From Chloroflexota bacterium (GTDB lineage: Bacteria > Chloroflexota > Dehalococcoidia > JACQUO01), in assembly GCA_016210205.1 (NCBI GenBank), contig JACQUO010000034.1, positions 3,484-67,483 of the forward strand: 64,000 nucleotides of DNA, in the 5' to 3' direction. Below are positions 29,585-44,981 of this stretch, in pieces. The notes beneath the pieces were generated by a model. It made no database searches. It saw only the letters and a list, made by a program, of their open reading frames with translations, and was not told the origin of the DNA. The translations under genes were made by a program, and so were the position numbers. Each line of letters opens with the position of its first letter. Position 1 is the stretch's first letter.

Positions 29585-32353
29585 CTAGGCTGGCACCTTC
29601 ACCGCCGCTTTGGCTACTTTCACCGCACAGGTCTTGAACTCGGGGATTTTGGCTTGGGGGTCTAAAGCGGGGTTCGTGAGGACATTGGCATTGGCCTCAG
29701 CAAAATGGAAGGACATGGTGATGACACCCGGAGGTGTAGCGCCGGTTACCGCGGCCCGGGCCCTGGCCTGGCCCCTACGGGAGGTCACCTCCACCCAGTC
29801 CCCGTCCTGGATTGCCAGCTTGGTGGCATCGGCGGGGTTTATCTCCACCATCCCTTCTCCCACAATGCGGTTCAGGTCCTTCACCTTCCGGGTCATGGTG
29901 CCGGTGTGGTAGTGATAGTAGCTTCGGGCCGTGGTGAGCACCAGGGGATAGTCCGCATCGGGCAGCTCCGTCGGCGGCCGGTAGGTCAGGGCCGTGAACT
30001 TGCCTTTGCCGCGGGTGAAGCGCTCCGTGTGGAGGATAGGGGTGCCGGGGTGGTCCGCCGTGGGGCAGGGCCACTGGAGGCCGCCCTCCTTCTCCAGACG
30101 AGCGTGGGAGATGCCGCCGTAGCTCGGCGTGAGGCGAGCCATCTCCTCCATCACCTGGGCCGGGCCGGCGAAGTCGAAGCCCTGGCCCCCCAGGCGCTGG
30201 GCGAGCTGGCAGATTATCTCCCAGTCGGTCCGAGCCTGGCCAAGGGCAGGCAGGGCCGGGCGCACCAGCTGCACCCGGCGCTCGGTGTTGGTGAAGGTGC
30301 CGCCCTTCTCCGCAAAGGAGGTAGCGGGGAGAATCACATGGGCAAACTGGTTGGTCTCGTTCATGAAGATGTCCTGGCACACGAAGAACTCCAGCTTCTT
30401 CAGGGCCTCCTCCACATGGCCTATATCGGGGTCGGAGACCATGGGGTTCTCCCCCATCATGTAGATGGCCTTGATTTTGCCCTCGTAGGCGGCGTTGAAC
30501 ATCTCCACCAGGGTCAGGCCGGGCCTGGCGGGAAGCGAGACGCCCCAGGCCTTCTCATGTTTCTCCCGCAGCGCCGCATCAGCCACCGACTGATAGCCAG
30601 CATAGACATTGGGCAAGGCCCCCATGTCGCAAGAGCCCTGGACATTGTTCTGTCCCCGCAGGGGGTTGACCCCAGCCCCGGGCTTGCCCAGGTTGCCCGT
30701 GAGCATGGCTAGATTGGCGACGGCCATGACATTGTCGGTGCCGTGGCTGCTCTGGGTGATGCCCATGGCATAGAGGATGGCCGCAGGCTTGGTGGTGGCG
30801 TAGAGACGGGCCGCGGCGGCGATGTCCGCTTTGGCCACGCCGGTGAGCTTCTCCACGGTGTCCAAGTCAAAGGCCGCCAGGGAGGCCTTGAAGGCCTCGT
30901 AGTCCTCGCAGCGCTCGGCGATGAAGGCCTTGTCCTCCAGGCCCTGGTCCACGATGGCCCTGGCCAGGCCCGTGAGCAGGGCCACATCGCTCCCCGGCCG
31001 CTGGCGCAGCCAGATGGAGGCGTCCCGGCAGAGGGGTATCTCTCGGGGGTCAGCCACGATAAGCTTGGCCCCGCCTTTCACCGCTTGACGCACCTTCATC
31101 CCGATGACGGGGTGAGTGGCGGTGGTGTTGGAGCCGATGACCAGGAAGCAGGCCGATTGGAGCATCCCCTGGTTGGTGTTGGTCATGGCGGCGCTGCCGA
31201 AGACCGCTCCCAGGCCCGTCACCGAGGAAGAATGGCACAGGCGGGCGCAGTGGTCCACATTGTTAGTGCCCATGACGGCCCGAGCGAACTTCATCATGAG
31301 GTAGTTCTCTTCGTTGGTGCACTTGGCCGAAGAGATGGCGGCGAACTGGTCGATGCCCTTATAGGGGGCGAGCTTCTGCGCGATGAGGCTCAGGGCCTCC
31401 TCCCAGGTGGCCGCCACGAACTGCCCATCCTTCTTGATGAGCGGGGTGGTGAGCCGCTCCGGGCTCTGGATGAAGTCCAACCCGAACTTGCCCTTGACGC
31501 AGAGACGCCCCATGTTGGCCGGGGCATTGGGCTCGCCTTTGACGCGCTGGATTTTATCGTCCTTGATGAAGAGGCGGAGCTGGCAGCCCACGCCGCAGTA
31601 GGGGCAGGTGGTGACCACCTGCCGGTCGGCGAGGCCGGCCCAGCGGTTGGCCCGCTCCACGATGGAGCCCGTGGGGCAGATGTCTATGCAGGAGCCACAG
31701 AAGATGCAGCCCGCCTCCTCCAGGGAGCGTCCGAAGGCGGTGCCCACCAGAGCTTTGCTACCCCGGTAGGTGAAGGCCAGGGCCGAGGCCCCCACCACCT
31801 CATCGCAGATGCGGACACAACGGCCGCAGAGGATGCACAGGTTGTAGTCCCGGTCGTAGAAGGGGTCCTTGTTCTCGATGGGCAGGCCCCGGTAAGAATA
31901 GGGAAGGGTCATCTCGGGGAGCTGGATGTAGCGAGCCACTTCTTTGAGCTCGCACCGCTTGTTCTTGGGGCAGGTGACGCAGCGCTCGCTCACGGAGACA
32001 TGGCGGAGGCAGATGTCACCGGGGCCACAGAGTTCGATGCGGTGGCAGGTGATGCAGGGATGGGGATGCTCGGTGAGCAGGAACTCCAGGATGTTGCGCC
32101 GGAGCTGCTGGAGCTGGGGCGTGTTGGTCTTCACCACCATGCCCGCCGTGACGGGGGTGGTGCAGGCGGTGGGGAAGCCCCGCAGGCGCTCGATTTCGGT
32201 GATGCACATGCGGCAGCCGCCGTAGGGCTTGAGGTCGGGATGGGCGCAGAGGGTGGGGATGTACAGCCCCGCCTGCTGGGCCGCCTCCAGGACCGTGGCT
32301 CCCGCGGGGGCCTTGACCTCCCGTCCGTCGATGCTTAAGGTTACATCTGCCAC
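29585..32353 (-). CDS. formate dehydrogenase alpha subunit (molybdopterin, Cys-type) with NuoG-like N-terminal Fe-S domain
   Basis: 922 aa. N-terminal 2Fe-2S/4Fe-4S Cys clusters, then the MopB cluster CPYCGVGC. The active-site context HCARLCHSSSV has Cys where Sec-type enzymes have Sec. GQNNVQGSCDMG is also present. Confidence 0.85.
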   Translation of the reverse strand: MADVTLSIDGREVKAPAGATVLEAAQQAGLYIPTLCAHPDLKPYGGCRMCITEIERLRGFPTACTTPVTAGMVVKTNTPQLQQLRRNILEFLLTEHPHPCITCHRIELCGPGDICLRHVSVSERCVTCPKNKRCELKEVARYIQLPEMTLPYSYRGLPIENKDPFYDRDYNLCILCGRCVRICDEVVGASALAFTYRGSKALVGTAFGRSLEEAGCIFCGSCIDICPTGSIVERANRWAGLADRQVVTTCPYCGVGCQLRLFIKDDKIQRVKGEPNAPANMGRLCVKGKFGLDFIQSPERLTTPLIKKDGQFVAATWEEALSLIAQKLAPYKGIDQFAAISSAKCTNEENYLMMKFARAVMGTNNVDHCARLCHSSSVTGLGAVFGSAAMTNTNQGMLQSACFLVIGSNTTATHPVIGMKVRQAVKGGAKLIVADPREIPLCRDASIWLRQRPGSDVALLTGLARAIVDQGLEDKAFIAERCEDYEAFKASLAAFDLDTVEKLTGVAKADIAAAARLYATTKPAAILYAMGITQSSHGTDNVMAVANLAMLTGNLGKPGAGVNPLRGQNNVQGSCDMGALPNVYAGYQSVADAALREKHEKAWGVSLPARPGLTLVEMFNAAYEGKIKAIYMMGENPMVSDPDIGHVEEALKKLEFFVCQDIFMNETNQFAHVILPATSFAEKGGTFTNTERRVQLVRPALPALGQARTDWEIICQLAQRLGGQGFDFAGPAQVMEEMARLTPSYGGISHARLEKEGGLQWPCPTADHPGTPILHTERFTRGKGKFTALTYRPPTELPDADYPLVLTTARSYYHYHTGTMTRKVKDLNRIVGEGMVEINPADATKLAIQDGDWVEVTSRRGQARARAAVTGATPPGVITMSFHFAEANANVLTNPALDPQAKIPEFKTCAVKVAKAAVKVPA

Positions 32354-32386
32354 TCTTTACTCACCTCTATCCAAAGTCGGTCAGGG

Positions 32387-35300
32387 TTATTCTTCCAAGT
32401 CACAGCGGAGACAGCGCCGGCACTCGGCCAGGGCCTGCTCCGCGGTGAATCCCAGGTCCACCAGGCTGAAGCTGCCCTGGCGCTGGGCCGGGGGCATGGC
32501 GGGCATTCGGGCCCGGGCGGCGCCGCCCTCGGCAACCTCCGCGGGGACTATCTCCTCGGGCAGGGCGAAGGTCTCGGCGATGTCGCCTTTCCCGCCCAGA
32601 TAGCGGTCCACGGCCATGGCGGCCTCCCGCCCCTGGGCGATGGACTCGATGACGGAGGAGGGCCCCAGCACCACATCGCCGCCGGCGAAGACGCCGGGCC
32701 GGCTGGTGGCCATAGTGTCCTCGTTCACCTCCACCTGGTTGCCCCGTCCCACCTTGATGCCCATCTCCGCCAGGTCCTCGGGCATCTGGCCGATGGCGGC
32801 AATCACGGAGTCCACCTCCATGACATACTCGCTGCCCGGCATGGGCTCGGGGCGGGGGCGGCCGCTGTCGTCGGGGGCGCCCAGGCGCATGCGGACACAC
32901 TCCAGCTTGAGGTGGCCGCTATCCCTGATGACCTGGGTGGGATTGGCCAGGACCTCCAGCTTGGCTCCTTCGTGGAGGGCCTCCTCAATCTCCTCGTGGG
33001 TAGCGGGCATCTCCTTGCGGGTGCGGCGGTAAACTATGGTCACCTCTTTGGCCCCCAAGCGGAGGGCGGTCCTGGCGGCGTCGATGGCGGAGTTGCCGCC
33101 GCCCACCACCACCACCCGGATGCCCAGGTTGAACTTCTGGCCTGAACTCGCCTCCCGGAGGAAGGTGACGCAGTCCAGCACCCCGGGGCCATCCTCGCCC
33201 TTGACCCGCATCTTGGTGCCCAGATGGGCCCCCGTGGCCAGATAGACCGCAGCGTAGCCCTCGGCGAACAGCTTGTCCGCAGACTGCACCCTGGTGTTGG
33301 TCTTGAGCTCCACCCCCAGGGCGGTGATTTCCCCGATTTCTTTATCCAGCACCTCTGCCGGCAGGCGGTAGCGGGGGATGCCCACCCGCATCATGCCGCC
33401 GGCCTGGGGCAGGGCCTCGAGCACCGTGACCTTATGGCCTAGGCGGGCCAGATAGTAGGCTGCGGTGAGGCCGGCGGGGCCGGCGCCCACCACCGCCACC
33501 CGCTTCCCCGTGGGCGGTTTCATGGCGGCTCGGTCCTTCCACTTATCGGTGGCGTGGTCCGCGGCGAAGCGCTTGAGGCTGCAGATGGCGATAGGCTCGT
33601 CCACATCCTTACGGCGGCACTTGGCCTCGCAGGGGTGGAAGCAGACATAGCCCAAGATGGCCGGGAAGGGCACCCGCTCGCGGATGACCGCCAGGGCGGT
33701 GTCGTAGTCGCCCTTCTGAATCTCCCGGATGTAGCGGGGCACATTGATTTGGGCGGGGCAAGTATGGCGGCAGGGGGCGATGATAATGTCCCGGCAGACC
33801 ACGGCGGGGCACTTCTTCTTCTCAATGTGAGCCTTATACTCATCCAGGAAATAACGGGTGGTGGTGAGGATGGGGTTGGGACAGGTCTGCCCCAGGCCAC
33901 AGAGGGAGCCCGAGCGCACGGTGTTGGCCAGGCTGATGAGCTTCTCCACATCCCCGCGCTGGCCCTCGCCCTGGGTGATGCGGGTCATGAGGTTGAGCAT
34001 CTGCCTGGTGCCCACCCGGCAGGGGATGCACTTGCCGCATGACTCAGCCTGGGTGAAGGTGAGGAAGAAACGGGCCAGGTCCACGATGCAGGTGTCCTCG
34101 TCGGCTACCACCATGCCGCCGGAGCCCAGGATGGAGCCCACCTGGGCCAGGGTGCCGAAGTCCACGGGGGTGTCCAGCATGCTGGCGGGTAGGCAGCCGC
34201 CGGAGGGGCCACCGGTCTGCACCGCCTTGAAGCGCTTCTGGTTGGGTATGCCCCCCCCAATCTCGTAGATGATTTTGCGGAGGGGGGTGCCCATGGGCAC
34301 CTCCACCAGGCCACAGTTGGCCACCTTGCCCGTGAGGCTGAAAATCACCGTGCCCTTGGAGTCGGCAGTGCCGATGCCTGCGAACCAGTCGGCTCCCATG
34401 GACAGGATGCGGGCGGCGCTGGTCAGGGTCTTGACGTTGTTGATATTGCTGGGGGAGGCCCAAACGCCCGAGTTGGCCGGGAAGGGTGGCCGCGGCCGGG
34501 GCATGCCCCGCAGCCCCTCGATGGAGGCGATGAGGGCCGTCTCCTCGCCGCAGACGAAGGCCCCCGCACCCTCCTTCAACTGCACATGGAAGGAGAAGCC
34601 CGAGCCCAGGATGTTATCCCCCAAAAAGCCCCGTTCCTCCGCCTGGGCCAGGGCCTTGCGCACACGAACGATGGCCAGGGGGTACTCTGCGCGGACATAC
34701 ATGTAGCCGTGGTTGGCCCCGATGGCATAGGCGCCGACGGTCATGCCCTCAATGCAGGAGTGCGGGTCCGCCTCCAGGATGGAGCGATCCATGAAGGCCC
34801 CGGGGTCCCCCTCGTCGGCGTTGACAATCATATACTTGTTCTGGCCCGGGGCAGCCCGGCAGAAGCTCCACTTCTGCCAGGTGGGGAACCCCGCCCCGCC
34901 GCGGCCCCGAAGGCCGGATTTCTTCACTTCCTCAATGACCTGTTCGGGGGACATCTGGAGAGCCTTCTTCAGGCCCGAATAGACCCCCACCTCCAGAGCA
35001 TCATCGAGGCTCTCGGGGTTGATGTGGCCGCAGTTCTTGAGGACCACCCGGTTCTGCTCTTTATAGAAAATCACATCCTTGTAGTGCGGTATGCGCTCCC
35101 CCGTCTGGGGGTCGGGGTAGAGGAGCCGCTCCACCACCTTGCCCTCTTTGAGATGGGAGCGGGCGATGTCCCGGGCATCCTCGGGCTTGACATGAGTGTA
35201 GAAGACGCCCTCGGGCTCCACGATGGCGATGGGTCCCCGCTGGCAGAAGCCATGGCAGCCGGTGAACTTCACCTGGGCCGGCAGGCCCAGGGCGCGAATC

Positions 35301-35395
35301 TCCGCCTCCAGGCTGACTTGAATCTGCGGCGACTTGGCGGAGGTGCAGCCGGTGCCCTGGCAGATGAGGACAGTATGCCGGGAGTTCTCAGGCAT
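32387..35395 (-). CDS. NuoF-like (NADH/FMN/4Fe-4S) protein fused to a GltD-like NAD(P)H flavoprotein module
   Basis: About 1002 aa. Thioredoxin-like 2Fe-2S N-terminus (CQGTGC...CHGFC). NuoF motifs (GLRGRGGAGFPTWQKW, CGKCIPCRVG). GltD-like part (CRHTCPAQINV, CFHPCEAKC, VAVVGAGPAGL, VVVVGGGNSAID). Start set at ATG 35395, preceded by AGGGGGA. Confidence 0.82.
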   Translation of the reverse strand: MPENSRHTVLICQGTGCTSAKSPQIQVSLEAEIRALGLPAQVKFTGCHGFCQRGPIAIVEPEGVFYTHVKPEDARDIARSHLKEGKVVERLLYPDPQTGERIPHYKDVIFYKEQNRVVLKNCGHINPESLDDALEVGVYSGLKKALQMSPEQVIEEVKKSGLRGRGGAGFPTWQKWSFCRAAPGQNKYMIVNADEGDPGAFMDRSILEADPHSCIEGMTVGAYAIGANHGYMYVRAEYPLAIVRVRKALAQAEERGFLGDNILGSGFSFHVQLKEGAGAFVCGEETALIASIEGLRGMPRPRPPFPANSGVWASPSNINNVKTLTSAARILSMGADWFAGIGTADSKGTVIFSLTGKVANCGLVEVPMGTPLRKIIYEIGGGIPNQKRFKAVQTGGPSGGCLPASMLDTPVDFGTLAQVGSILGSGGMVVADEDTCIVDLARFFLTFTQAESCGKCIPCRVGTRQMLNLMTRITQGEGQRGDVEKLISLANTVRSGSLCGLGQTCPNPILTTTRYFLDEYKAHIEKKKCPAVVCRDIIIAPCRHTCPAQINVPRYIREIQKGDYDTALAVIRERVPFPAILGYVCFHPCEAKCRRKDVDEPIAICSLKRFAADHATDKWKDRAAMKPPTGKRVAVVGAGPAGLTAAYYLARLGHKVTVLEALPQAGGMMRVGIPRYRLPAEVLDKEIGEITALGVELKTNTRVQSADKLFAEGYAAVYLATGAHLGTKMRVKGEDGPGVLDCVTFLREASSGQKFNLGIRVVVVGGGNSAIDAARTALRLGAKEVTIVYRRTRKEMPATHEEIEEALHEGAKLEVLANPTQVIRDSGHLKLECVRMRLGAPDDSGRPRPEPMPGSEYVMEVDSVIAAIGQMPEDLAEMGIKVGRGNQVEVNEDTMATSRPGVFAGGDVVLGPSSVIESIAQGREAAMAVDRYLGGKGDIAETFALPEEIVPAEVAEGGAARARMPAMPPAQRQGSFSLVDLGFTAEQALAECRRCLRCDLEE

Positions 35396-35882
35396 GGTGG
35401 TCCCCCTTGCTGGCATCGCCGAAGAGCTCTTCCACCTTCTTCATGGTCATCTCCCCGTGGGTCTCCTCGTTGATGACCATGGTGGGGGCCAGGGCGCAGG
35501 CGCCGATACAGGCCACCGTCTCCAGGGTGTAGTTCAGGTCGGGGGTGGTCTGCCCCTCTTTGACGCCCAAGCGCTTCTCCACCTCCAGCAGGATGCGGTG
35601 CCCGCCCTTGACATGGCAGGCAGTGCCCCGGCAGACCCGGACCACATTCTTGCCCGTGGGGTGGAGACGGAACTGAGCATAGAAGGTCATGACCCCGAAA
35701 ATCTGGTTCCGGGAGATGTGGAGGAACTTGGCAATCTCCTCCACGGCCTCCTCGGGCAGATAGCCCAGCTTCTCCTGGGTCTTCTGAAGGATAGGGATAA
35801 GGGCACCACGCTCCCCTTTATAGGGGATTAGAAGCTCCTTCATTTGCTCCTTTATGGAGTCAGTCGCAGACGCCATGGCCAT
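35388..35882 (-). CDS. NuoE-like [2Fe-2S] thioredoxin-fold subunit
   Basis: 164 aa. Cys pattern CRGTAC...CIGAC is typical of NuoE/HoxE/FdsG. 8-nt overlap with the downstream NuoF-like gene. Confidence 0.85.
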   Translation of the reverse strand: MAMASATDSIKEQMKELLIPYKGERGALIPILQKTQEKLGYLPEEAVEEIAKFLHISRNQIFGVMTFYAQFRLHPTGKNVVRVCRGTACHVKGGHRILLEVEKRLGVKEGQTTPDLNYTLETVACIGACALAPTMVINEETHGEMTMKKVEELFGDASKGDHHA

Positions 35883-42514: not shown

Positions 42515-43495
42515 CTAGCTCCGCAGCGGCGGCAACAACGCGGCGGCGAAGGCGACGGGGTCGAAGGGGGCCAGGTCCTCCAGTCCCTCGCCGGTGCCGA
42601 TGAAGGCCACGGGCACCTGGAGCTCGTGGCAGATGGCCAGGACAATCCCCCCCTTGGCGGTGCCATCCAGCTTGGCCAGGAAGATGCCATGCACCCCCAC
42701 TGCTGCGAGGAAGTGCCGCGCCTGGGCCAGGGCATTCTGCCCCATGGTGGCATCCAGGACCAGCAGGACCTCCGGGGGAGACTCCAACTGGCGCTCCAGG
42801 ATGCGGTGGACCTTCTTCAGCTCCTCCATGAGGTTGAACTTGGTGTGGAGTCGGCCCGCCGTGTCCACCAGGAGCACATCCGCCCGGCGGCTTCGGGCCG
42901 CCTGGAGGGCATCGAAGGCCACGGCGCCCGGGTCGGCCCCGGGCTGGCCGGCGATGACCGTGGCCCCGGCGCGCTCCCCCCAGACCTGGAGCTGGTCGAT
43001 GGCCGCGGCCCGGAAGGTATCGGCGGCGGCCAGGACCACTGCCTGGCCCTCCTGCTTGAGGGCATAAGCCAGCTTAGCTATCGAAGTGGTCTTGCCGGAG
43101 CCGTTCACCCCCACAGCCAGCACCACGCGCAGGCCAGAGGGGGATGGCGCCGGGGCCTGGGAAGGGAGGGACAAGACCTCCACCATGGCCTGCCGCAGGG
43201 CCGCGGCCACAGCCTCGCCGCTGGCCAGGCTCTCCCGGCGGGCCCGCTCCCGAACCGTCGCCAGGAGGCGGGAGGCTGTGGGCAGACCCACATCGGCCAG
43301 GATGAGGGCTTCCTCCAACTCGTCCCAGTCGCCCGCATCCAGGGCCGGGCGTCCCAGGAGCTGACTGATGCGGCTGAAGAAGCCGGCCCGGGTGGGCCGG
43401 GCGGCCTGCTCCGTCTTGTCCTTGTCTTGGCGCCTCAGAAAGCCCAGCAGGGTCTCACCCCCAACAAAAGGCTGGAGATGATAATAGCATACCAA
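42515..43495 (-). CDS. ftsY: signal recognition particle receptor FtsY
   Basis: NG domain motifs GVNGSGKTTSIAKLA, DTAGR and AKLDGTAKGG. The true start is probably internal (near LGFLRRQDK) and uses a non-ATG codon. Confidence 0.9.
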   Translation of the reverse strand: MVCYYHLQPFVGGETLLGFLRRQDKDKTEQAARPTRAGFFSRISQLLGRPALDAGDWDELEEALILADVGLPTASRLLATVRERARRESLASGEAVAAALRQAMVEVLSLPSQAPAPSPSGLRVVLAVGVNGSGKTTSIAKLAYALKQEGQAVVLAAADTFRAAAIDQLQVWGERAGATVIAGQPGADPGAVAFDALQAARSRRADVLLVDTAGRLHTKFNLMEELKKVHRILERQLESPPEVLLVLDATMGQNALAQARHFLAAVGVHGIFLAKLDGTAKGGIVLAICHELQVPVAFIGTGEGLEDLAPFDPVAFAAALLPPLRS

Positions 43496-43505
43496 CAGGG
43501 GGGCA

Positions 43506-43539
43506 GGAAAAGGGAGAGAGCCGATTTAGGCCCTCTCCC
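43506..43539 (-). terminator. intrinsic terminator after the MerR/micro-ORF unit
   Basis: Minus strand has GGGAGAG-N14-CTCTCCC followed by TTTTCC. It begins about 40 nt after the micro-ORF stop. Confidence 0.6.
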
Positions 43540-43578
43540 AGCTCCACGGCTATTGTTTTGCCTGCAAGCCAAGGCTAA

Positions 43579-43668
43579 TCAGGCGCAGCCACAGCCGCAG
43601 TCGCAACCCTTGGCCTCTTCCTTGACTGGCTTGGGGGCTGCTCCGGCCTTTTTATCTTTGCCCGCCAT
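43579..43668 (-). CDS. 29-aa Lys-rich peptide ending in CxCxCxC (candidate metal-binding micropeptide)
   Basis: Not in the ORF track. Encodes MAGKDKKAGAAPKPVKEEAKGCDCGCGCA*. The ATG at 43668 is preceded by AAGGAGGTGA with a 6-nt spacer. The micro-ORF overlaps the merR 3' end by 17 nt and is followed by a terminator. Confidence 0.5.
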   Translation of the reverse strand: MAGKDKKAGAAPKPVKEEAKGCDCGCGCA

Positions 43669-44140
43669 CCTTCATCACCTCCTTTCCGGTTTTCGTCGCC
43701 GCCGTGCCTCCGAGCTCCGGGAAGCACTGGCATCCCATACAGGGCGCTGGCTCCCTTATATCACCCTTATCATCAAGAATCTGCTCCAGATGCTCCAGGC
43801 CCGCCCGCAGCCGCTTCCGGAGGGCTTGTAGCTCTTCAGTTTGCCGCTCCGTCTCTCTGATTCGCAGCTCTATGATATTTCGGAGGTGCGCCCGTAAATC
43901 CTGGCAATGGCCGCCATCAATCAGGGCCTGGGACTCTTTGACCGCCCTCAAGGGCAACCCCAGCTTCTTGACTTTGATGATAAGAGCCAACTGCTCCAAA
44001 TGAGTCTCGTCGAAGACGCGGTACCCCGATTCATTCCGCCGAGTTGGAGGCAAGAGGCCGACTCGCTCGTAAAACCTCAGGGTTTTGGGGCTGAGGTCGA
44101 AACTTCTGGACACCTGGCTGATAGTTAAGGGTCTTTCCAT
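43652..44140 (-). CDS. MerR-family (metal-responsive type) transcriptional regulator
   Basis: 162 aa from ATG 44140 (SD AAAGGAG upstream). HTH region LTISQVSRSFDLSPKTLRFYERVGLL, then a coiled coil. Cys in GGHCQD and a C-terminal CMGCQC. The first 148 aa of the track ORF 43652..44584 are an artefact overlapping rnc. Confidence 0.85.
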   Translation of the reverse strand: MERPLTISQVSRSFDLSPKTLRFYERVGLLPPTRRNESGYRVFDETHLEQLALIIKVKKLGLPLRAVKESQALIDGGHCQDLRAHLRNIIELRIRETERQTEELQALRKRLRAGLEHLEQILDDKGDIREPAPCMGCQCFPELGGTAATKTGKEVMKDGGQR

Positions 44141-44164
44141 GGCTAGCTCCTTTAGTTCGGAGCT

Positions 44165-44196
44165 ATGGTAGAACATTCTCCCCAGGGGAATGTCAA
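44165..44196 (-). promoter_or_regulatory. MerR-type promoter: TTGACA-20 nt-TACCAT with a 21-bp dyad in the spacer
   Basis: -35 at 44191-44196 and -10 at 44165-44170. The dyad ACATTCCCCTGGGGAGAATGT (minus strand, 44193-44173) forms 8 of 10 pairs and overlaps the -35 and the spacer. Confidence 0.6.
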
Positions 44197-44240
44197 GGGG
44201 ATACCCGAAGGAGTTTAGGGGATTTAGCGCCGCCTTGTTG

Positions 44241-44981
44241 TTAGTTGGGCTTCTGGCGCCGTTTGGCCGACACGATGAGGGGGATGGCGGCCTCGCCCTT
44301 ATCCAGCACCTTGAGGGCCGCCTGGGCCGCCGCCTGCTCGGCCCGCTGCTTGCTGGAGCCGGAGCCCCGGCCCAGGAAATTCTTGCCGGCCAGGGCCTCC
44401 ACCACGAAGACCCGCTCGTGGGCCGGCCCCTTGCTCTCCGCCACCCGATAGGAAGGGATAATCTGATATTCCTCCTGGAGTTGGGCCTGGAGGCGGGACT
44501 TGTAGTCCGCCGCCCCCTTGCCCTGTAGCGTCCGCCGCAGCTCCGTGCGAAGCCAGGCCTGGATGAGGCGGCGCGCGGCCACATAGCCCTTGTCCAGAAA
44601 ATAGGCGCCGGCCACCGCCTCCAGGGCCGAGGACAAAAGGCGCGGCCGCTTGCGCCCTCCCGTATGCTCCTCCCCCACCCCCAAAAAGAGGAAATCCCCC
44701 AGCTTGCGGTTCTCCGCTATCTTGGCCAAGGTGTCCCGCTGTACCAGGAAGGAGCGGAGCTGGGAAAGGTCACCCTCCTCCATCTCCGGGAAGCGCTCGT
44801 AGAGAGCCTGGGCCACCGCCAGGCCGAGGACGGCGTCGCCCAGGTACTCCAGGCGCTCGTTGTTCCCCAGGGGGGAGTCGGGGTTCTCGTTGCGGTAGGA
44901 GCGGTGTATCAGGGCCTGCTCCAGGAGCGCCCTTTTCTTGAACTTGGCCCCCAGGTTCTTCTCCACGAGCTCCCAGTCCAT
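44241..44981 (-). CDS. rnc: ribonuclease III
   Basis: 246 aa. Signature ERLEYLGDAVL plus a C-terminal dsRBD. Confidence 0.93.
   Translation of the reverse strand: MDWELVEKNLGAKFKKRALLEQALIHRSYRNENPDSPLGNNERLEYLGDAVLGLAVAQALYERFPEMEEGDLSQLRSFLVQRDTLAKIAENRKLGDFLFLGVGEEHTGGRKRPRLLSSALEAVAGAYFLDKGYVAARRLIQAWLRTELRRTLQGKGAADYKSRLQAQLQEEYQIIPSYRVAESKGPAHERVFVVEALAGKNFLGRGSGSSKQRAEQAAAQAALKVLDKGEAAIPLIVSAKRRQKPN

Follow-up and report, generated by a model that had tools for sequence, protein, structure and literature searches.

What might a metal-type MerR regulator control when the only other gene in its unit encodes 29 amino acids? This question is raised by a small minus-strand module placed between rnc and ftsY in a 64-kb stretch of DNA from an uncultured member of the Chloroflexota (contig JACQUO010000034.1; the whole stretch is hereafter called the window), in which a MerR-type promoter, a merR gene, a Shine–Dalgarno (SD) sequence, a micro-open reading frame (micro-ORF) for a Cys-rich peptide and a terminator follow one another. 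All of these parts had been proposed in a preliminary description made from the letters alone, and all are indeed there. The micro-ORF is predicted to be encoded on the merR transcript, with the terminator directly after it. We suggest that the two genes form a minimal, self-activating metal-stress module in which MerR would sense a thiophilic metal and be expressed together with a mini-metallothionein that buffers it, a reading to which we assign a probability of roughly 0.6. Within it, the micro-ORF as a real peptide gene is strongly supported by its sequence context and conservation, and a metallothionein or metallochaperone function of the peptide is plausible.

The peptide gene (43579..43668, minus strand) opens with an ATG at 43668, closes with a stop codon at 43581–43579 and overlaps merR by 17 nt. 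Its product is MAGKDKKAGAAPKPVKEEAKGCDCGCGCA, and its SD, AAGGAGGTGA (43675..43684), is embedded within the last merR codons with 6 nt to the ATG. Two in-frame stops just upstream of the ATG mean that the ORF cannot extend and that 29 residues are its full length; together with the SD and ATG they define a separate ORF, and we rejected a frameshifted MerR tail as its identity on these grounds and on finding that the ORF of the closest distinct relative (the Logan contig L028) begins 5 nt past the merR stop. The four Cys of the window peptide are arranged as CxCxCxC and it holds no aromatic or His residues, so that in size, Cys motif and lack of aromatics it has the marks of a metallothionein; peptides in the homologous position elsewhere reach 57% Cys. 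Both strands of the window contain only five loosely SD-led micro-ORFs with at least three Cys, and among these the combination of a CxCxC run, an ATG start and a canonical SD is unique to 43579–43668. GC content at third codon positions (GC3) is 0.67 in the micro-ORF, equal to that of merR.

Close relatives of the window MerR were found only on the Logan contigs L028 and L118, the other loci of our scans lying at 43% identity or less, so that the evidence for frame conservation within the window's own lineage comes from one relative: L118 is identical to window positions 43441–44240. The glycyl-tRNA synthetase encoded in the window reaches no more than 77% identity to any database protein, and those of its matches that carry names belong to metagenome-assembled genomes of Chloroflexi and Dehalococcoidia. 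In L028 the gene order rnc, merR, micro-ORF, ftsY is the same as in the window, and the peptide, MADKGKKVEVVAKPIKTKANSCGCGCG, keeps the ATG, the SD (GGAAGGGGGTGA), the reading frame, the Cys tail and the position of the stop. The two micro-ORFs are separated by an in-frame 6-nt indel, and one Cys codon has changed synonymously from TGC to TGT. Stops close the other two frames in L028, leaving the micro-ORF as the sole frame open in both sequences, and the N-terminal part of the peptide stays Lys-rich and hydrophilic despite free change. The preliminary description had offered conservation as the check on its micro-ORF; frame, SD and Cys tail are kept where the merR 3′ region is kept, in L028, and analogous ORFs follow many distant MerR homologues. 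It had also expected gene callers to miss the peptide, which turns out to be half right: on L118 the 29-aa ORF was called as a gene, whereas homologous micro-ORFs elsewhere are uncalled or called in the wrong frame.

The wider distribution of the arrangement emerges from a scan of a genome collection (27 loci) and from 80 loci, at ≤39% identity, that an alignment of MerR proteins retrieved from metagenomes. The next-best MerR matches, P0003 and P0004 (36% identity), lie on contigs L029–L031, where merR ends in ...GGAGGAGGTGAAAAC TGATG, a stop/start overlap that leads into MAKEPCPSCGCPCGESPCPCCGC. There the gene caller took a 43-aa wrong-frame ORF over the Cys-rich micro-ORF (L029 3401–3532, L031 1458–1589), which shows that such genes are mis-annotated and not merely missed. 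On the plus strand, SD-led Cys-rich ORFs stand at the MerR stops of L033, L034, L035, L036, L048, L057, L064 and L065, and further ones at those of L068, L078, L082, L083, L084, L108 and L110; the L034 peptide, MAKKPETKETKAKKPDCGCGCS, strongly resembles that of the window. Altogether at least 20 further loci carry an SD-led Cys-rich micro-ORF at or near the MerR stop, often stop/start-coupled and with SD sites of the GGAGGTGA type upstream; their MerR proteins are 30–39% identical to ours and their peptides are 12–36 aa long with 14–57% Cys. Hairpin terminators follow the peptide genes in several of these distant loci, and SD, ATG and stop are retained in carriers whose host-lineage GC content ranges from 44% to 73%.

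In a strict scan, 15 SD-led Cys-rich ORFs fell between −60 and +120 nt of the MerR stops (19.7 kb); the rest of these loci, ~878 kb when both strands are counted, held 4, which amounts to an enrichment of ~170-fold. Substitution patterns bear the signature of coding sequence. The micro-ORFs of L029 and L048 differ at 12 positions, 9 of them third positions, with 9 synonymous against 1 non-synonymous codons and a TAA-to-TAG change of the stop; those of L112 and L120 differ by 3 synonymous against 1 non-synonymous codons and by a GTG/ATG swap of the start. A neighbour-joining tree of the MerR proteins contains one large clade with a peptide or fusion in 13/13 of the members that could be judged, and separate peptide-bearing lineages formed by the window with L028, by L034, by L035/L036 and by L057. 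The feature is clade-specific and not universal in the MerR family: the 27 genome-collection loci, which belong to other MerR clades and for the most part encode regulators of actinobacteria ending in '..DPxxC..C.YL', have no downstream Cys micro-ORF. A profile search returned at least 4,942 related MerR proteins, which carry the NCBI name 'heavy metal-responsive transcriptional regulator', and all five related loci checked at the DNA level (the complete genome of Geodermatophilus sp. URMC 65, Geodermatophilus sp. CPCC 206100, a metagenome-assembled genome of Micromonosporaceae and two metagenome contigs) carry a micro-ORF absent from the annotation, one example peptide being MLELTCTCDPDCCDETCDCDC of Geodermatophilus sp. 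URMC 65 (CP199954.1), whose gene comes directly behind the MerR at 3,136,261–3,136,701. The arrangement, called unusual in the preliminary description, is so in the literature; in genomes it is a recurrent and largely unannotated module.

Database searches with the peptides brought up almost nothing. None of 12 peptides has a match among the Pfam or NCBIfam models (the window peptide at E ≤1, 10 sister peptides at E ≤10), and an exact look-up of 10 peptides, that of the window included, gave no match in a collection of 15 billion proteins. A phmmer search with the 30-aa peptide against 1.84 billion representatives returned a single match, P0264, a 287-aa acidic protein with two repeats (...TPAVVPVEEE..CDCGCG...) that resemble APKPVKEEAKGCDCGCGCA; this match is probably compositional. 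In the freely searchable full-text literature we found no description of a MerR–micropeptide operon.

Turning to the regulator, the 162-aa product of merR (43652..44140, minus strand; ATG at 44140) matches the Pfam families MerR_1 (PF13411, 2.2e-19) and MerR (PF00376, 5.4e-15), both over their cut-offs, and MerR-DNA-bind (PF09278, 8.5e-07; 29.9 bits against a cut-off of 25.4). Its SD, AAGGAG (44147..44152, minus strand), lies 6 nt before the ATG and is conserved in L028. Cysteines occur at residues 79, 134, 137 and 139, the last three forming a C-terminal C134-x2-C137-x-C139 cluster, and the CxxCxCFP motif is conserved in L028. In a phmmer comparison with the sequences of the Protein Data Bank, residues 5–113 align with CueR such that His78-Cys79 fall on CueR His76-Ser77. 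Structures of CueR and ZntR have established that this position is Ser in sensors of monovalent ions and Cys in sensors of divalent ions; Cys79, which is invariant in 13/13 peptide-associated MerRs, thus points to a divalent effector such as Zn, Cd, Pb or Hg. An AlphaFold2 model, with a predicted local distance difference test score (pLDDT) of 85.5, shows a canonical winged helix-turn-helix (helices 7–14 and 18–26 and the wing), a dimerisation helix at residues 79–124 with pLDDT >90 and a disordered tail at 125–162, and places Cys79 at the start of the dimerisation helix. Foldseek ranks CadR, CueR and PbrR as the top matches to this model with a probability of 1.00, along with other MerR-family structures. 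The top-ranked NCBIfam models are CueR, ZntR, CadR-PbrR, NmlR and MerR, all far under their equivalog cut-offs (bits/cut-off: CueR 69.7/147.4, ZntR 60.1/168, CadR-PbrR 62.8/151.5, MerR 55.3/150.9). At the level that sequence can reach, the earlier assignment to a metal-sensing type is borne out, and a heavy-metal MerR of the CueR/ZntR/CadR-like kind is supported.

The promoter is equally characteristic. A −35 hexamer, TTGACA (44191..44196, minus strand), read directly and identical in L028, and a −10 hexamer, TACCAT (44165..44170), are separated by a 20-nt spacer, and the predicted operator, the 21-bp dyad ACATTCCCCTGGGGAGAATGT (44173..44193), spans the end of the −35 element and most of that spacer. 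A spacer of 19–20 nt is the hallmark of MerR-family promoters such as those of merT, copA and zntA, and a dyad within a promoter so spaced is what we find in the window. A standard sigma-70 scan misses this promoter because it permits only spacers of 16–18 nt, as is expected for a MerR-type promoter. The symmetry of the dyad is incomplete: 8/10 positions pair in all, among them every one of the outer 6 bp of each arm. There is a single copy of it in the window and 100 shuffles gave 0 matches even at ≤3 mismatches, so the window contains no further candidate regulon member bearing this operator. Promoter and operator are 100% identical between the window and L028, whose merR genes themselves are only ~59% identical as DNA. 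Each of the loci with a peptide or a fusion (21/21) has TTGA[AC]N, a 19–20-nt spacer with a dyad and TAnnnT upstream of merR, the dyads of the distant homologues standing in the equivalent position as ACCTTGGAG..CTCCAAGGT or as the CueR-box-like ACCTTCCAG..CTGGAAGGT. The actinobacterial merR genes begin 6–7 nt after the −10 hexamer, and their transcripts are therefore predicted to be leaderless.

At its other end, the unit is closed by an intrinsic terminator (43506..43539, minus strand), GGGAGAGGGCC..GGCTCTCTCCC followed by TTTTCC, found both by a terminator scan and in the minimum-free-energy fold, with a stem at 43539–43512 of 11 bp, 8 of them GC pairs. L028 has GGGGAAGGGCC..GGCCCTTCCCC TTTTT in the equivalent place, and we regard the terminator as structurally conserved because the stem is retained through paired changes on both sides. 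Upstream, rnc (44981–44241, minus strand; RNase III, with the Pfam domains Ribonucleas_3_3 and dsrm) ends with a stop that precedes the module promoter; on the 3′ side of the terminator lies ftsY (43495–42515, minus strand; SRP54 domains). An extended −10-like element, TGCTATTAT, stands at 43480–43500, right after the terminator and ahead of ftsY, and its retention in L028 as TGGTATTAT makes it probable that ftsY has its own promoter and that the MerR unit is transcriptionally insulated on this side. An RNA element in the merR 3′ region was considered and rejected, as its fold is no better than that of shuffled sequences (z = −1.16) and there is no Rfam match, here or anywhere in the window. 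Elsewhere in the window, and unrelated to the module, a formate-dehydrogenase-like molybdopterin subunit of 922 aa adjoins a 1009-aa NuoF-like fusion with Complex1_51K, NADH_4Fe-4S and pyridine-nucleotide-disulphide-oxidoreductase domains (29585–35416, minus strand).

The comparison of window 43480–44260 with L028 370–1391 further reveals a mosaic. From the 3′ end of rnc across the promoter and as far as merR codon 25 the two DNAs are 95% identical; the figure falls to 59% over the rest of merR and the N-terminal part of the peptide, and returns to about 90% in ftsY. Such a pattern would result if the sensor-effector half and the peptide had been replaced together by allelic exchange, or if both had diverged very fast. 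Composition also sets the module apart, with a GC3 of 0.67 for merR and the micro-ORF against 0.88–0.89 for rnc, ftsY and a DUF2298 gene, and a dip in GC to 0.55–0.59 over 43450–44350 against 0.66–0.74 in the flanks. Mosaic identity and distinct composition together suggest horizontal acquisition or exchange of a cassette that would carry the sensor's effector half along with the peptide.

Loci in which the two genes have different relations to each other shed light on what the peptide might do. In L038 and P0035, the latter an independent cluster, the MerR ORF reads on into a Cys tail (...MADEVHDCPCGPDCQCTPGCGCGCR) and the SD and ATG are retained inside the fused ORF; L037 is a third fused locus. 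Conversely, sibling MerR operons that lack the micropeptide fill the same coupled slot with an ArsP_1 permease whose Cys-rich loops read SSCCSTK...SSCSTK...SCCASKK (L062, 2240–3388), a DsbD_TM-type membrane protein (L001, 3450–4652) or a 60-aa CxxCxxC protein with CPACSECP and without a Pfam match (L066, 568–750), and the presence of transporters and the like in this slot implies that the peptide occupies the effector position. Flanking genes vary from locus to locus and are mostly unrelated to metal. Those that are metal-related comprise a convergent CopC/CopD gene in L064, CadD directly upstream in L108 and a multicopper oxidase 2 kb downstream in L112, while in the Geodermatophilus-type loci L112, L116 and L120 genes for a low-molecular-weight phosphatase (LMWPc, ArsC-like) and for ArsR-LMWPc recur 0.3–3 kb from the module, a hint that metal(loid)-resistance neighbourhoods are home to some of the modules. 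As a separate observation, human-gut metagenome contigs (L041–L055, L059, L060 and L073) hold a clade of 124-aa MerR-like proteins without Cys at position 79, encoded in single-gene units between two terminators behind the promoter TTGACA-TGGAGTTAACTCCA-...-TAATAT; they end in ...MYKGMCSPGCCGKK, resembling the free 12-aa peptide of L057, MKDPTSCPGGCC.

On this basis we propose a mechanism in which an apo-MerR dimer would sit on the dyad and keep the mis-spaced promoter poorly active. A thiophilic metal would be held between the two subunits, by Cys79 from the first and the C-terminal CxxCxC from the second; the metal-bound dimer would untwist the promoter and, in the manner of other MerR-family members, bring the −35 and −10 elements back into register, raising transcription of merR and the peptide together. 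Translated from its own strong SD, the peptide could then bind metal through the thiolates of its C-terminal CxCxCxC, alone or as oligomers; such thiolate binding is suggested by composition, namely CxC, CC and CxxC motifs, no aromatics, and D/E/G/P between the Cys. As a mini-metallothionein, or a gene-encoded phytochelatin-like buffer, the peptide would lower the free metal and in this way feed back on the sensor.

Several observations weigh against this sensor-plus-buffer mechanism. Sequestration without efflux is limited in capacity, and four Cys (14%) put the window peptide towards the bottom of the metallothionein range. The first two-thirds of the peptide, rich in Lys, evolves fast, with 13 non-synonymous against 5 synonymous codons between the window and L028. 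On the side of the sensor, C134, C137 and C139 lie 55–60 residues past Cys79, compared with 35–45 for the two Cys that CueR and ZntR carry in a short loop behind the dimerisation helix, and the segment has a pLDDT of 50–64; with the Cys cluster so distant and in a disordered tail modelled at low confidence, the geometry of the metal site is uncertain. In addition, CxxCxC looks like three-quarters of the [2Fe-2S] motif of SoxR. All equivalog cut-offs being missed, the regulator is not an orthologue of any named sensor. Finally, a 1-nt deletion at ~position 740 of L028 splits merR into a 103-aa product and a 55-aa ORF, the remainder being open, and reflects either an assembly error or a (recent) pseudogene.

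How, then, do other explanations fare against the same evidence? The peptide might instead be an accessory of the sensor that docks on MerR and hands metal to its site, completes the site or strips holo-MerR of its metal to let a very tight switch reset, this last role loosely recalling MerD of the mer operons. Stop/start overlap or close coupling favours roughly matched synthesis of both products, in the fusions the Cys tail is an extension of the MerR C-terminus and lies just behind the metal-binding loop, the MerR effector half and the peptide diverge as one block between conserved flanks (window versus L028), and four Cys provide little storage capacity, all of which would suit an accessory. 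Yet the peptide sequences are wholly different between clades whose MerR folds are alike, as fits composition-driven chemistry over a specific interface; the SD of the peptide is much stronger than the often leaderless merR start, predicting an excess of peptide; and sibling operons hold transporters, that is effectors, in the peptide slot, so that we consider the accessory role unlikely, if the most serious of the competitors. Less probable still is an answer to redox or thiol-reactive stress, with MerR as a sensor of oxidants or electrophiles, or as the holder of an Fe-S cluster bound by CxxCxC and Cys79, and with the peptide as a sacrificial thiol buffer or cluster ligand. NmlR is indeed among the weak NCBIfam matches, no metal transporter lies in the window neighbourhood, and CxxCxC equals the first three Cys of the SoxR CX2CXCX5C; but the fourth Cys is missing, the SoxR model (TIGR01950) gives 25 bits against a cut-off of 116.9 and the true SoxR proteins in the match list look different, which led us to reject a SoxR-like regulator. 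Moreover, the best structural and sequence matches are metal sensors, and several of the homologous modules have genes for Cu, Cd or As as neighbours.

Two further possibilities are poorly supported, and we hold both to be very improbable. Short and Cys-rich as it is, the peptide could be imagined as the precursor of a modified or secreted product, a ribosomally synthesised and post-translationally modified peptide or a methanobactin-like metallophore, and some copper-binding natural products do derive from Cys-containing precursors. However, no maturation or peptide-modifying enzyme, protease or exporter is found next to any of the more than 20 loci, whose flanks differ (the window neighbours encode RNase III and FtsY); the peptides have neither a leader/core organisation nor a signal peptide, and the terminator directly follows the peptide gene. 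The micro-ORF might, alternatively, yield no functional product and be a remnant of the MerR C-terminal tail or a by-product of GC richness. The slight constraint on the N-terminal part of the peptide would agree with this, the fused forms make a frameshift origin conceivable, and the 3′ region has no significant RNA structure either. Against it speak the retention of SD, ATG and stop across the whole GC range of the carriers, the enrichment by MerR stops, the synonymous-biased substitutions with start and stop codon swaps that preserve function, and the fact that the frame of the micro-ORF alone is open in both the window and L028.

There is also a broader proposition, on which we are evenly divided: that heavy-metal MerRs of Actinomycetota, Chloroflexota and other lineages commonly carry a hidden gene for a 12–36-aa Cys-rich peptide, the smallest natural bacterial analogue of metallothionein or phytochelatin, as a mobile, self-activating sensor-plus-buffer module. 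In that case no gene-encoded metal-thiolate binder of bacteria would be shorter than these peptides, each of which would evolve or be swapped as a single cassette with the effector half of its sensor, and the fused variants would give two products from one ORF, as TipAL/TipAS do. Many 'orphan' metal MerRs without an apparent target gene would also be explained, for example of the kind seen in Frankia, where in a genome survey all metal-related merR genes were without adjacent resistance genes (PMC4531530); should the partner be a micropeptide that gene callers pass over, annotation would be blind to an entire layer of metal buffering in bacteria. SD-led ORFs of fewer than 30 aa coupled to the stop codon of a regulator deserve systematic calling. 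The modules are short enough for synthesis and present in cultured Geodermatophilus, which makes them experimentally accessible now, and, being natural and compact, they offer parts for circuits in biosensing and bioremediation, currently built on engineered MerR/CadR–metallothionein pairs.

Compared with the heavy-metal MerR activators CueR, ZntR, CadR, PbrR and MerR, the window regulator shares the winged helix-turn-helix and long antiparallel dimerisation helix, the dyad operator within a 19–20-bp spacer, the Cys at the CueR-Ser77/ZntR-Cys79 position and the C-terminal Cys residues. It differs in scoring 55–70 bits against equivalog cut-offs of 143–168 and in a CxxCxC that lies ~20 residues further from Cys79 than in solved metal sensors. 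In contrast to the named metal-sensor operons, the regulator here is the first gene of the operon it is predicted to control, and the only gene co-transcribed with it would be a micropeptide rather than a P-type ATPase, MerT/P/A or another transporter. The unit of MerR and Cys-micropeptide would thus vary a known theme, that of a metal sensor in control of a metallothionein.

That theme is embodied by SmtB–SmtA, RicR–MymT and CadR–Zrd, in each of which a small, Cys-rich protein of the cytosol that binds metal is under the control of a metal sensor, as is predicted here; MymT was itself originally an unannotated small ORF (PMC7558416), and Zrd of P. aeruginosa is activated by the MerR-family CadR (PMC12301328). 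SmtA, MymT and Zrd, however, are at least 53 aa long, have defined folds or clusters and are transcribed apart from their sensors, which for SmtA and MymT belong to the ArsR or CsoR family, whereas window-type peptides are 12–36 aa long, encoded on the sensor's own mRNA and often stop/start-coupled, and show no sequence relationship to these proteins in Pfam or NCBIfam. In logic only, the closest likeness is to TipAL/TipAS, a minimal resistance system of Streptomyces under its own control, in which a MerR-family activator turns on the promoter of its own gene and the transcript also gives rise to a separate ligand-sequestering product (PMC7762955); the internal SD and ATG of the fused L038 and P0035 genes could similarly give a long sensor and a free Cys peptide. 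There the ligand is a thiopeptide antibiotic bound by the folded TipAS domain, and that domain (PF07739) is absent from the window protein. In the chemistry of the peptide, the nearest parallels are the smallest metallothioneins of eukaryotes, such as the 25-aa copper metallothionein of Neurospora, and phytochelatin, (gamma-Glu-Cys)n-Gly, which are of comparable size, alternate X-Cys, lack aromatics and presumably form metal-thiolate clusters. These have no counterpart of the long Lys-rich N-terminal segment of the window peptide, and they differ also in that the peptides described here are bacterial, are predicted to be ribosomally made and are tied to a dedicated MerR sensor.

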